A program made the position numbers and the translations under genes. Below, piece after piece: positions 13,391 through 21,992 of a stretch of 64,000 nt of DNA (positions are counted from its first letter, which is position 1; every line of letters begins with the position of its first letter). The DNA is from Eledone cirrhosa. Its lineage: Eukaryota. The notes below the pieces were generated by a model. The model ran no database searches. It was given only the letters and a program-made list of their open reading frames with translations, and had not been told where the DNA came from. The DNA lies in NCBI GenBank assembly GCA_964016885.1, contig OZ024742.1:218426001-218490000 (forward strand), read 5' to 3'.

Positions 13391-14165
13391 AGTAAAATAA
13401 CGGCACAAAGGACTCGCGTATAATCCTGTAATTAAATGAGCTCAAAGGAAATAGTTTTCCTGGGCACTTTAAATACAATATATAGAGGGGAAAGACACAG
13501 AAGAGTGTGTTTTTCTTTACAGGAATTTCAAACCACCAGCGTGAAGAGAATATAAGCTACTAGAGGCATTGGTAAAACATTAAAATTAAAAGTATAAATT
13601 AAAATGAGAAACCAACCTCATACCTAGGTCACACATGTACACACTCACCAGGAGCATGTTAGCCATTTTAGTGGGTTCCAATACGGCCCGGTGGGTCATC
13701 AGCATGTGGAAGGCCGATATTGTCCGCACTACTAGAGAGAGAGAACTAAAGTAAACCACCCTTCGCACGTGTAGACATAAGAGAAATGCGAGCGCGGGGC
13801 AGTAACTGGTGGCATGAACAGAACAAGCTGCTAGAAATGGCAGCCTATACTATTCAATTTATGGTGCTCAACAGCAGAGAGAGCGCAAAGAGCAAATATC
13901 AAGTAAAATAACGGAACAAAGGACTCGCGTATAACCCTGTAATTAAATGAGCTCAAAGGAAATAGTTTTCCTGGGCACTTTAATGGCGAAACATTCTCCT
14001 GTGTGACCTAGGTATGAGGTTGATTTCTTATTTTAATTTATACTTTTAATTTTAATGTTTTACCAATGCCTCTAGTAGCTTATATTCTCTTCACGCTGGT
14101 GGTTTGAAATTCCTGTAAAGAAAAACACACTCTTCTGTGTTTTTCCCCTCTATATATTGTATTTA
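13391..14165 (-). mobile_element. 511-nt non-coding HHR unit with duplicated tail and inverted arm (family F3)
   Basis: A at 13391-13472 equals A at 13902-13983; B at 13472-13668 is inverted at 13982-14165; TA flanks. Confidence 0.85.
13632..13708 (-). ncRNA. Type I hammerhead motif (GAAA mutated in this copy, intact in the inverted arm)
   Basis: CACAUG CUGAUGA C CCA..UGG C [UAA; GAAA at 13988-13991] CAUGCUC CUGGU GAGUGUG UA^ CAUGUG. Confidence 0.7.
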
Positions 14166-14172
14166 TATATAT

Positions 14173-14241
14173 ACTCTTGAGTCCAGAAATAGCCGCCGAA
14201 ACGGCTTGAGCTCTGCCGTCGGGGTATTGAACATTTTCCTA
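14173..14241 (+). mobile_element. Isolated tail-less arm of an F2 hairpin
   Basis: GAGTCCAGAAATAGCCGCCGAAACGGCTTGAGCTCTGCCGTCGGGG..TTTTCCTA then (TA)n. Confidence 0.75.
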
Positions 14242-14373
14242 TATATATATATATATATTAATAAGAGGAATTCCAACTTTGTCTGATTTACTCGTTTTAT
14301 TTACAATCCTTTAAAATATATAATGGTATTATAATGAAATAGTATGATAGAATATTAAATTCTAAGTGTTAAT

Positions 14374-14412
14374 TGAACAAGTACTTTCATGCTTTCACAA
14401 TCTTCAGGTTCA
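14374..14412 (-). ncRNA. Inverted copy of the minimal hammerhead at 14486-14524
   Basis: Exact reverse complement of 14486-14524. Confidence 0.85.
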
Positions 14413-14485
14413 TAATATGTGGTGACAGTCAAGTTTGCAATTTTCAACAGTTGAAAATTGCAAACTTGACTGTCACCACATATTA

Positions 14486-14524
14486 TGAACCTGAAGATTG
14501 TGAAAGCATGAAAGTACTTGTTCA
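14486..14524 (+). ncRNA. Minimal type I hammerhead motif, palindromic stem III
   Basis: UGAAC CUGAAGA U UGU GAAA GCA U GAAA GUAC UU^ GUUCA. Confidence 0.85.
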
Positions 14525-14899
14525 ATTAACACTTAGAATTTAATATTCTATCATACTATTTCATTATAATACCATATTATATAAATTTTAAAGGATTGTA
14601 AATAAAACGAGTAAATCAGACAAAGTTGGAATTCCTCTTATTAATATAATCTTCTATACACAATCATACACACCCGTGTGTATATATATATATATATACA
14701 ATTAGTATGTTCGCTCCAACATAGCCATATACATACATGTATGTAAAGTTTGCATATCAAATAATATGGTTTCTTATTTAGGCACAAGGCCAGAAATTTC
14801 GGGGAAGGGGAAAGTCGATTAAATCGACCTCAGTACGTGACTGCCAATCCACCGCCCTTTGTATATGAAATAATATACGATATGTTTATGAATAAATAT

Positions 14900-19485: not shown

Positions 19486-19587
19486 CTCACTATGTAGCCT
19501 TAATAAAATGAATATTACGACTACTTCGGTGTTGAGTACTCTTTTCTCTCAGCCATCAACCACATACGGATATATATATATATATAT

Positions 19588-20181
19588 AAAGTAAGTCCAT
19601 AGAATCATCAGATAAAATATATACAGTATTTCTTCTCCCAATTAGCATAAATCAACCACACAAAAAATCATTTAAACGAGGCTATAAGTTTAAAATGTAC
19701 TTATAAAGAAACAATAGATAAATGATATAGCTTCTTATCCGCGACTCACAGCCATAAAAAATTTATCTAATATTTCTAATAGCCTGTCGAAATTGACCAG
19801 ACATATAGTTAACCATACATAATTAGGTACAAAATCAAAGTTAGAAGAAAAAATGTACATAAACCTTACCAAAATCATCAAAATATCTCTAGCCTCGGCG
19901 GTTTCATTCCATTTTTGGATATATCCGATCTTGGATAAATCAACGAGGTTTGGAAATCATCAGGAGATAACTCAATTGGACAAAGATTTTTCTACCATGA
20001 TCCCCGCCAGAAACGGATTCAAAATGGCTAAGAATCACCACGTGGCTAGTGGTCAAGGCAGAAAGTTTGTGATTGGTGCCTGTCGGTGAGTAGGCTGGTT
20101 GCTAGAAAGCGCAGCCGAATACTGCCTAAAGTTTTAGTCAACCCTACGGGTATATACATATAAACTAGACAAAGTCATAGA
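19588..20181 (-). mobile_element. ~590-nt non-coding HHR unit between TA tracts (family F5)
   Basis: HHR at 19884-19969; a short AAGTC(C)ATAGA at both ends; shares a GGCTG..TTTCTARC motif with F3 and F4. Confidence 0.6.
19884..19969 (-). ncRNA. Type I hammerhead motif with long stem II
   Basis: UAUCUC CUGAUGA U UUCCA..UGGAA U GAAA CC GCC GA GGC UA^ GAGAUA. Confidence 0.75.
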
Positions 20182-20431
20182 TATATATATATGTTTTGGC
20201 AGCCATTCATATATATATATATTTAGGTTTGTTGGTTTACCACTGGATAGAACTGGTCATTCCGTATGGTCAACTTCGATGTAATATTATGGAGAGCACT
20301 CAACGTAATGCAACTTACCCGACTTGAGGGCGGCCGACCGGGATAGAAGCTGCTAAATATTCGGTCACCCTCATGTCTCTGATTTTCAGCGCCATGGATA
20401 TTGTCAATTATATTCCTTTGTTATATTTCAA

Positions 20432-20489
20432 ATACCTGATGATGTCACCGGATTCATACTGAACCCGGTCATTGAAATGATCATAGTAT
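20432..20489 (+). ncRNA. Type I hammerhead motif, palindromic stem III
   Basis: AUAC CUGAUGA U..ACCGG..CCGGU..U GAAA UGAUCA UA^ GUAU, followed by AAUAAA and (TA)n about 50 nt later. Confidence 0.8.
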
Positions 20490-20713
20490 AATAAACATTT
20501 CAAGGAATTACACCATTCCAGCCTCCTGTTATTTTATAATATATATATATATATATATATATATATATATATATATATATATATATATATATACATATAT
20601 ATATAGGGTTAGGGTTATATATATAATATATATATATATATATATATATATATATATATATATATATATATATATATATATATATATATATATATACATA
20701 CATATAAATATAT

Positions 20714-21160
20714 ATATTGTTATGCTTTGGGAGGGTCATGTTGCCAATAAGAAACACACGCACCAGTTATTTCAGTCCAATTTATTATAAATTAAATTTA
20801 TAAATTTAAGAATTTATAAATTTCCGGTTGGTTGGTTGGTTGGTTGGTTCCGTAGATGGCGTAGGACAGAACAAAGGAGAGGCACAAAAACAAAGAAAAG
20901 AATCCCCAATCACTGAAGAGGTCACATAATGTGTGACGAAAGAACTTTAACAATATATGAACAACCGTCTGGTTATGGAACCAACCAACCGGAAATTTAT
21001 AAATTCTTAAATTTATAAATTTTATTTATAATAAATTGGAGTGAAAGCAACTGGTGCGTGTGTTTCTTATTGGCAACATGACCCTCCCAAAGTATAACAA
21101 TATCGGTTTCAACGCACGTTTTCAGATAAAGAATCTTGCTAAACAAATTCAGAAAAGAAC
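20714..21160 (+). mobile_element. Penelope pLTR asymmetric hairpin with an HHR in the loop and a ~57-nt tail
   Basis: Arms 20714-20852 and 20975-21103; HHR CUGAAGA G GUCACA..UGUGAC GAAA GAAC UU at 20908-20950; the end ATGACCCTCCCAA..TATAACAATA matches 61498-61530. Confidence 0.85.
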
Positions 21161-21214
21161 TATATATATATATATATATATATATATATATATATATATA
21201 TATATATATATATA

Positions 21215-21992
21215 TACAAGTTAATATAAAAAATATGATCAACACTAATGTGTTTTTATTGCAAATTGACAATAATTTAGCCAGATAGAAATACCTTAAT
21301 TCCAGTATTGAGTATTGTACTGCTCAGAAATATTTCTTAGAGCTAAATAATTGTATTTGACTCCTGAGTGAAAACTCTAAATTATATTATATCTGCTCCT
21401 TCGGTCGAGCTGAATTCGTAATCCCATATAAACGGCTGTTATTTCTAACGCCATGAGTATGAGCCAGATTGCTGGGGAAAAATCGTGTGCAAAAGCACAT
21501 GTATTTGGCATACGACAAACCAGTCCTTAGATATTTCTCTTAGGTGAAGTAACTCTAATTTTTTTGGGTGCCTATTGAGAATCACAGAAAATTGATTATT
21601 TCACTAATAATTAATTCATAAATAGTTATTCCACAATTAATTAATTATTTCAATAGTATACCATCCTTTGTGAAACAGGTTTATTTTTTGAAGTTCGGAC
21701 TGATCTGCTGAAAAGGTTTGAATTTTGGAATTTAAACTTGTCTATGCACCAGGACAGTTGCCGATATACGTCTGTGCGTATAGATTTATTATTTTTTAGA
21801 TCGATACAGGCAGACTATATGTATTGGAATTAAGGTATTTCTATCTGGCTAAATTATTGTCAGTTTGCAATAAAAACACATTAGTGTTGATCATATTTTT
21901 TATATTAACTTGTATTGTACTGCTCAGAAATATTTCTTAGAGCTAAATAATTGTATTTGACTCCTGAGTGAAAACTCTAAATTATATTATAT
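21215..21992 (+). mobile_element. ~600-nt non-coding unit with duplicated tail and inverted arm (family F4)
   Basis: B' at 21215-21303 is the inverse of B at 21826-21914; A at 21312-21392 equals A at 21912-21992; possible degenerate HHR at 21702-21786. Confidence 0.85.

Follow-up and report, generated by a model that had tools for sequence, protein, structure and literature searches.

Two insertions of the same layout

The window, by which we mean the whole 64,000-nt stretch of the Eledone cirrhosa genome that was analysed (GCA_964016885.1, contig OZ024742.1, positions 218,426,001-218,490,000, forward strand), holds two short insertions, F3 and F4 (Table 1). F3 lies on the minus strand and reads as an inverted arm (B'), a 16-nt piece, A, a body, B and a second A, followed by TA/CA repeats; F4 lies on the plus strand in the order B', A, body, B, A and (TA)n. 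The initial annotation had described this arrangement in both insertions, with the first stretch of about 80 nt repeated at the 3' end and units of 511 and about 600 nt, and the repeats themselves bear it out: the A copies are identical at 79/81 positions in F3 and 81/81 in F4, the arms at 163/166 and 87/88, and the spacing is 511 and 600, respectively. A is the known "tail" of Penelope elements and B' their known inverted, 5'-truncated copy. In F3, B' starts 2 nt beyond the predicted hammerhead cut, and about 15 nt are skipped between the junction piece and the inverted arm. The F4 hammerhead has a U3-A8 core, long helices II and III and a single change in stem I, at 21745.

Table 1. Features of the F3 and F4 insertions, in positions of the window
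Feature	Position	Strand	Remarks
F3 inverted arm B'	14000..14165	+	tail-less; TA at 14166 adjoins its 3' end
F3 junction piece, 16 nt	13984..13999	+	corresponds to family positions ~315-330, GAAAC intact
F3 first A (unit start)	13903..13983	-	bears the conserved tail hairpin
F3 type I hammerhead (predicted)	13632..13708	-	stem I 13708-13703, CTGATGA 13702-13696, TAAC 13661-13658, GTA 13640-13638
F3 B (3' part of unit)	13470..13635	-	ends at fixed 3' site 1
F3 tail (second A)	13392..13472	-	ends at fixed 3' site 2; then TA and (TG)n
F4 inverted arm B'	21214..21302 (or 21307)	-	tail-less; 3' end within (TA)n 21161-21216
F4 junction filler, 9 nt	21303..21311		largely repeats the first bases of A
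F4 first A (unit start)	21312..21392	+	bears the tail hairpin
F4 type I hammerhead (predicted)	21567..21750	+	stem I 21567-21574, TTGAGAA 21575-21581, GAAAC 21672-21676, GTC 21740-21742
F4 part of B mirrored by the arm	21822..21915	+	ends at fixed 3' site 1
F4 tail (second A)	21912..21992	+	ends at fixed 3' site 2; then (TA)n up to 22997

Two families of protein-less units with predicted hammerheads

Far from being single-copy, which the annotation had allowed for, F3 and F4 are copies of multi-copy repeat families and not complete elements, with 150 and 361 exact 20-mer matches, respectively, and 0 for the reversed controls. Tandem copies give unit lengths of 507 nt for F3 and 590-600 nt for F4, the GC content of the monomers is low (32-42%), and the longest ATG-initiated reading frame in the family monomers is 36-46 aa, in agreement with the lack of an ORF noted in both window copies. 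Both families have two fixed 3' termini, one at the end of B and one at the end of A, 65-88 nt apart, and the 5' ends are scattered across the whole unit. The reading of F3 and F4 as complete non-autonomous mini-Penelopes thus survives in its non-autonomous, Penelope-like part but not as to completeness, because the 5' ends scatter, some arms are longer than one unit plus tail, and the window's layout recurs in only 1/88 other F3 and 1/82 other F4 insertions; both window copies do start at B|A, but few others in the families do. The family is present as DNA in three contig sets from one sample.

The same distributions bear on the suggestion that F3 and F4 arose by internal deletion from tyrosine-recombinase (DIRS/Ngaro) elements, whose repeats are split or inverted. 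Such an origin is scarcely credible: it is favoured solely by the appearance of the two window copies, with their direct and inverted terminal repeats, and neither a pair of fixed termini nor a single layout was found, only the 3' ends being fixed, with 5' ends and arm lengths that vary freely; head-to-tail multimers exist, and the hammerheads and the (TA)n targets are in keeping with Penelope-like elements (PLEs).

The annotation had seen little overall similarity between F3 and F4, which holds for the bodies (335/500 shuffles score as high as the real alignment) but not for the B|A junctions, which do align (1/2000 shuffles). As judged from sequence, the two families are related to each other and appear to share a conserved tail hairpin, present at 1,842 sites at least, for which the pair count is self-favouring, since the structure was drawn from these same sequences. 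A shared motif in the body was traced to an unrelated satellite of about 50 bp.

Both families are predicted to carry a full type I hammerhead. In the F3 family the core retains CTGATGA in 53/60, GAAAC in 63/73 and GTA in 73/79 matches, but the window copy, which had been described as the clear case, is broken: GAAA is lost, TAAC stands in place of GAAAC, and the type I core is incomplete. Conversely, the F4 hammerhead, described as degenerate, has a full type I form with stem I, both conserved core segments and GTC in place. Across the F4 family core positions 3 and 8 are paired in 83/83 cases and covary (U-A 48, C-G 34, U-G 1), GAAAC is kept in 87/89 and GTC or GTA in 99/101; a U3-A8 core has been reported in PLE hammerheads (PMC4209133). 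The U4C change in 34/83 F4 cores, accompanied by A6U in 10 of them, may weaken cleavage. Helix III has 8 bp in F3 and more than 20 bp in F4, and the lengths of helix II differ across families. When the F3 consensus is folded without constraint, the core is partly masked, in a structure 0.7 kcal/mol below the open-core fold. Rfam gave 0 matches in the window at the gathering score, and at 8 loci searched with E up to 5 it returned no hammerhead, just TA-repeat and hairpin miRNA artefacts.

We also considered the hammerhead cut as a 5' run-off site. Among 79 F4b arms, 4 have their start precisely at the cut (Poisson p = 0.0009) and 8 more start 5-20 nt after it, and 2 further long copies of this kind were found; in F3, 4 of the 5' ends lie 0-4 nt from the cut, with 1.1 expected (p = 0.03). 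The product of cleavage starts with TA, however, as does a control site 24 nt further along, which gave as many loci as the cut itself (5 against 5, with 4 long copies each), so this use of the cut is unproven.

Mostly one tailed and one tail-less arm per two-armed insertion

Two arms are present in 53/89 F3 and 48/83 F4 insertions, and where both can be classified (n = 90) 83 combine one tailed with one tail-less arm, 7 have no tail and 0 have two. The pattern is the same in F3 (45 with one tail, 0 with two, 4 with none and 4 unclassified, n = 53) and in F4 (38, 0, 3 and 7, n = 48), and it departs from independent choice at binomial p of about 3e-10 and 4e-9, respectively; in a third family 8/9 two-armed insertions have a one-sided tail. 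Such one-sided tails make it likely that the copying enzyme uses one RNA start site for one DNA strand and another for the opposite strand. The 7 insertions with two tail-less arms count against a model of one start per strand. At the outer 3' ends, (TA)4 or more lies within 30 nt in 229/256 cases, against a background of 14%, and together with the fixed 3' ends this makes likely the earlier proposal, in which the opposite strand of the (TA)n tract primes a second cDNA at the B end.

Arms of one insertion share private variants and differ by 3.4%, compared with 5.9% from arms elsewhere (64 pairs), and gene conversion could be an alternative source of the shared variants. The shared variants are also what one would expect if a single cDNA folded back on itself, so that the inverted arm would duplicate the first and no second cDNA would have been primed; self-priming of this kind was proposed for rotifer PLEs (PMC3846280). 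Some junctions enclose short fold-back pieces, and symmetry to within 3 nt is seen in 5/83 (permutation p = 0.07) and to within 10 nt in 10 (p = 0.02), which lends self-priming some weight. Arm junctions (n = 75) show overlap in 47 cases, a blunt join in 10 and filler in 18. Yet either kind of arm may be the longer one (24 against 26, with 4 ties, n = 54), the tail-less arm reaching further in 26, arm lengths are uncorrelated (rho = -0.11), and a tail-less first strand offers no template for a tail, so we hold self-priming to be quite unlikely.

The annotation had instead taken the RNA to run from A to B, its unit starting at B|A, with one cDNA copying the first ~80 nt and then jumping, strong-stop-like, to the 3' end, so that the window copies would be complete. 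Both window copies do begin at the boundary, the tailed F4 arms stop at B|A in 7/37 cases with 2.3 expected (p = 0.009, uncorrected), and in two insertions, L038 and L174, both arms terminate there, one unit apart. Against this, the F3 tailed arms have no excess of such stops (5/51, with 3.7 expected), the layout seldom recurs, and most tailed arms lack a first A and run on into B. Moreover, arms pass the boundary and exceed one unit plus tail in 7/114 F3 and 23/93 F4 cases, and a relative extends to 2.9 units, with a maximum of 3 units seen. We consider the jump very unlikely, and B|A acts as a mild stop at most.

We find it highly probable that F3 and F4 are 5'-truncated two-armed insertions of related, protein-less, hammerhead-bearing families. 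Their copying is likely done in trans, by a reverse transcriptase-endonuclease of the Penelope kind that would prime two cDNAs at two fixed RNA sites that flank tail A. The template would be an RNA longer than the unit, made either by transcription that reads through a partial tandem or by closing of a circle once the hammerhead has cut. The PLE protein, which is probably dimeric in this role, would bind the tail hairpin and introduce a nick into each strand of a (TA)n tract, with initiation by one active site at the end of A and by the second at the end of B; each cDNA would stop at a variable point, and the two ends would be joined head to head through microhomology or a short filler. The A-body-B-A arm of the window copies would then be a tailed cDNA that chanced to stop after one unit plus tail, and since initiation within a tandem or circular RNA, at the end of the downstream A, would account for the repeat, no jump is needed.

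Relation to Penelope-like elements and retrozymes

No autonomous, protein-coding element with this 3' end turned up in samples of 50 GIY-YIG loci, of 30 copies belonging to the window's own PLE family and of 30 loci of the wider tail-hairpin pattern; these samples make up a small part of the 10,595 and 29,764 candidates. PLE reading frames longer than 1,000 aa do occur in this genome. Neptune-type and Poseidon-type GIY-YIG families (clade labels based on motifs given in PMC8557442, not on a tree) and the window's own PLE were rejected as partner, as their 3' ends differ, and profile matches near copies of these families proved to be separate insertions in the TA tract. In L190, L130 and L151 a mini-element arm is joined to Neptune-type DNA with little or no TA; these junctions may reflect nesting followed by deletion, a reading we keep because in L191 such an arm is joined to a tRNA-like SINE end.

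The architecture itself is already known as the PLE landing pattern, and the system is not new. Descriptions of endonuclease-bearing PLEs in Craig et al. 2021 (PMC8557442) and Arkhipova et al. 2013 (PMC3846280) include pLTR-type partial tandems, an adjacent head-to-head inverted truncated copy, a tail at one end, (TA)n targets and a hammerhead near the 3' end; F3 and F4 differ in lacking an ORF and in a tail of 65-88 nt, about twice the 30-40 bp reported there. Poseidon of Anolis carolinensis, as portrayed in Frangieh et al. 2024 (PMC11167929), likewise has two internal reverse transcriptase start sites, giving two fixed 3' ends around a stem-loop tail, an AT-rich target of which both strands are cut and extended, a predicted dimer and a hammerhead mostly read through uncut. 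The likeness is one of description, and in vitro the anole start site reportedly showed no strand difference, whereas F3 and F4 use one site per arm in 83/90.

Metazoan non-LTR retrozymes, which have been put forward as non-autonomous derivatives of PLEs (Cervera and de la Pena 2020, PMC7229834; Li et al. 2026, bioRxiv 10.64898/2026.07.22.740005), are also non-coding, head-to-tail, low-GC monomers with one type I hammerhead each, and the F3 and F4 units fall within their range of 51-972 bp. Unlike them, F3 and F4, known here from DNA, are dispersed, mostly do not exceed one unit, and bear inverted arms and tails of PLE type, and their helix III is long compared with the 1-2 bp usual in animals; a long helix III is reported for fungal and protist PLE hammerheads (PMC4209133). 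Non-autonomous Chlamys elements such as MRC1 share pLTRs and head-to-tail copies, but, according to PMC8557442, their 3' ends correspond to those of an autonomous family and most of them have no hammerhead, whereas F3 and F4 conserve theirs and no such match was found. F3 and F4 thus likely represent new non-autonomous Penelope-like families of retrozyme type.

More tentatively, and short of an even chance in our estimate, a Penelope dimer may hold a single RNA by its tail hairpin and be obliged to fire from both start sites, using a different one for each strand of the target, so that every complete insertion would be a tailed and a tail-less cDNA of one transcript, and this superfamily, with monomer-competent hammerheads under compensatory selection, would be the genomic record of a retrozyme circle integrated in this way. 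If true, a single mechanism would account for tail, inverted arm and hammerhead together.

What is of value here is the counts, made possible because the short units leave both arms readable in full: a tail "often at one end" becomes 83 one-sided, 7 tail-less and 0 two-sided cases out of 90. That both arms share a source lineage and that either may be longer sets bounds on how inverted PLE copies form, and the pairing counts constrain whether a PLE dimer uses both start sites. F3 and F4 offer small natural substrates for PLE integration, and they tie retrozyme-like units to that process through junctions instead of co-occurrence.

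Family size and structure of the window copies

F3 and F4 are real, multi-copy, new non-autonomous families of Penelope-like elements (PLEs), of the retrozyme type, with units of 507 nt (511 nt in the window copy) and 590-600 nt, respectively. Exact 20-mers from B, the 3' part of the unit, occur 150 times (F3) and 361 times (F4) in the own genome, against 0 for reversed controls, so that the repeats are not single-copy. DNA searches of this 3.0-Gb genome gave 850 first-look candidates for F3 and 2,331 for F4, with 40 scored for each. We took the 30 + 30 best loci and, against length bias, loci picked by 20-mer alone in listing order from the first 100 places listed. 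After removal of 27 overlapping duplicates from 198 loci in all, 89 F3 and 83 F4 insertions of at least 60 nt remained, 69 and 65 of them pattern-selected. Median identity of copies to their own consensus is 94-96%, and F4 comprises two subfamilies 86% alike, 4a with a 600-nt and 4b with a 590-nt unit.

The repeats B'-A-body-B-A described in the initial annotation, where A is the first ~80 nt of the unit and B' an inverted copy of B, were recovered in both window copies, on the minus strand in F3 and on the plus strand in F4. Identity is 79/81 (F3) and 81/81 (F4) between the A copies and 163/166 and 87/88 between the arms. The absence of an ORF was also borne out, the family monomers having no ATG frame above 46 aa. 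A palindromic short TA-flanked element (14175-14240; further copies at 5681-5801 and 35041-35176) directly adjoins F3.

Features of F3, F4 and other Penelope-like insertions in the window
Feature	Position	Reading	Remarks
F3 B'	14165-14000	layout on minus strand	
F3 junction piece	between B' and first A	layout on minus strand	16 nt, displaced
F3 first A	13983-13903	minus strand	then body
F3 B	13635-13470	minus strand	
F3 second A	13472-13392	minus strand	
F4 B'	21214-21307	layout on plus strand	
F4 junction filler	between B' and first A	layout on plus strand	9 nt
F4 first A	21312-21392	plus strand	then body
F4 B	21822-21915	plus strand	
F4 second A	21912-21992	plus strand	
Coding PLE, long two-armed insertion	54520-61530		minus arm with ~58-nt tail ends 54520; plus arm, tail-less, ends ~61520
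Small two-armed insertion, other PLE 3' end	14254-14684		tail on one arm only; matches 3' end of Neptune-type family in locus L250
Small two-armed insertion, other PLE 3' end	20714-21160		tail on one arm only

Ends of the copies and one tail per insertion

Copies have two 3' end sites, at the end of B (tail-less arms) and the end of A (tailed arms), 65-88 nt apart, and (TA)4 or more lies within 30 nt of the outer 3' end in 229/256 cases versus 14% for positions drawn at random from these loci. The initial annotation had taken F3 and F4 for complete elements and named random ends as what would speak against this; the outer end of the inverted arm is fixed, as it had said, but the 5' ends are scattered, and because of this scatter completeness is refuted by its own criterion. 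The window layout, defined as an inverted arm together with a tailed arm longer than one unit whose start lies no more than 6 nt from the B|A boundary, was seen in just 2/89 F3 and 2/83 F4 insertions, window copies counted in. Of 114 F3 and 93 F4 arms, 7 and 23, respectively, are longer than one unit plus tail, three arms reach two units, and the L237 family, a related third family, has an array of 2.9 units. In four uncorrected tests, F4 arms stopped at the boundary in 7/37 tailed (2.3 expected, p 0.009) and 3/56 tail-less cases (0.9 expected, p 0.06), and F3 arms in 5/51 (3.7 expected) and 2/58 (0.7 expected); this amounts to mild stopping at the boundary in F4 and to none in F3.

Two-armed, that is head-to-head, insertions combine a tailed with a tail-less arm in 45 of 53 cases in F3 and 38 of 48 in F4; none has two tails, 4 and 3 have no tail, and 4 and 7 are unclassified (loci L038 and L045 have one common junction and are possibly a single event counted twice). 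Independent tail choice would make about half of them mixed (p ~3e-10 for F3, ~4e-9 for F4). The pattern-selected subset alone gives 34 mixed, 0 with two tails and 4 with none in F3, and 27, 0 and 3 in F4. The L237 family is mixed in 8/9 two-armed loci (12 loci examined), and inspection by eye shows one tail each also in three further PLE insertions of the window.

Symmetric junctions slightly exceed expectation, as if the inverted arm were made by simple fold-back of one cDNA; in 24 of 54 pairs, however, it is the tailed arm that extends further, in 26 the tail-less one (4 ties), and because either arm may reach further, without correlation between lengths, simple fold-back is disfavoured. 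The 75 junctions comprise 47 overlaps, 10 blunt joins and 18 with filler. Across 64 pairs, arms of one insertion diverge by 3.4%, versus 5.9% from arms elsewhere, and have 214 non-consensus bases in common, of ~400 per arm class, which suggests for both arms either a single source lineage or later conversion. The concept of twin priming comes from LINE-1 work.

Hammerhead motifs

The clear hammerhead reported for F3 exists at family level as a complete type I motif (CTGATGA in 53/60 matches, GAAAC in 63/73, GTA in 73/79; predicted helices III and I of 8 and 6 bp), but the window copy has lost G12. The F4 motif can no longer be called degenerate: core positions 3 and 8 covary (U-A 48, C-G 34, U-G 1; n = 83), with GAAAC in 87/89 and GTC or GTA in 99/101, counts that require matching flanking anchors and, the copies being related, represent few independent events. 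Its predicted helix I has 8 bp, its helix II region is long (~90 nt), and helix III exceeds 20 bp. Such U3-A8 covariation is already documented in parts of PMC3088659 and PMC4209133. Relatives in loci L006 and L011, which over 219 nt are 67% similar to F4, have a canonical CTGAGGA core and the same helix III, and the F3 and F4 motifs both lie on the strand with the fixed 3' end. Counting against hammerheads, the open-core fold costs 0.7-4.9 kcal/mol in predicted folding, and many F4b cores carry U4C and some A6U; Rfam gave no hammerhead match. 5' ends seemed to cluster at the predicted hammerhead cut, but this reading was dropped after comparison with a control site.

The L237 family (L230-L246, e.g. 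L237 952-2451), with copies 95-100% alike, a 518-nt unit repeated in the 2.9-unit array, a canonical CTGAGGA core and a long helix III, is a very young relative and the best bench candidate. Minimal hammerhead-like U3-A8 cores (TTGATAA, TTGAAAA) were seen in 3' UTRs of Neptune-type coding families (L200, L204, L210, L248).

Probable common signal, search for a coding partner, and known systems

Alignment of the F3 and F4 bodies is no better than shuffles, and that of their B|A junctions is better. Thirteen tails (F3, F4 and further subfamilies) have in common a bulged hairpin where A begins, with 93% of cells paired and 2/9 pairs changed on both sides, in a structure drawn from these same sequences; its pattern has 1,842 exact matches genome-wide, several further subfamilies among them. 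Junction and hairpin together suggest that the common architecture reflects a common signal and a common machine, not convergence of unrelated elements. Many tail-hairpin loci (L339-L368) have a second small hairpin just upstream of the tail end, and a 14-nt motif with 819 matches occurs both in ~50-bp satellite arrays (L309-L338) and in the F3, F4 and L237-family bodies.

The own genome is rich in coding PLEs. That of the window has an RT match and, by eye, a GIY-YIG-like C-terminus, and its family, with 150/150 scored matches at 93-94% or above, some in open frames of more than 1,000 aa, is young. No ORF was linked to an F3/F4 end among 50 GIY-YIG loci, 30 copies of the window PLE and 30 tail-hairpin loci, and some mini-element junctions with Neptune-type DNA are ambiguous. 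Arm junctions to other elements with little or no TA (L190 2606-2770, L130 1800-1830, L151 2100-2130, L191 1689-1800) are either mixed-template insertions or the result of deletions afterwards. Unrelated non-LTR retrotransposon fragments lie at 11828-12835, 32141-34337 and 41568-43683, with RVT_1 and zf-RVT matches in the two pieces scanned.

In layout the window copies, both incomplete as elements, follow the insertion pattern already known for PLEs: sections of PMC8557442 and PMC3846280 describe partial tandems, an adjoining inverted truncated copy, a tail (30-40 bp, often one-ended) and a (TA)n bias. According to portions of PMC11167929, the PLE tail is the segment that separates two RT start sites, and the protein, predicted to be a dimer, cuts both strands, extends them and in vitro can do without hammerhead cleavage. 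A circular template has been proposed for PLE copies longer than the unit (PMC4209133, in part). Non-LTR retrozymes, according to excerpts of PMC7229834, are tandem units that carry type I hammerheads but no coding sequence, and are expressed as circles in coral, mussel and axolotl; part of bioRxiv 10.64898/2026.07.22.740005 argues that they are non-autonomous PLE derivatives. In the literature outside subscription papers and Repbase/Dfam, we met with no counts of tail pairing and no name for these families. What F3 and F4 add that is useful and testable is the strict one-tail rule, together with the predicted conserved long-helix hammerheads.
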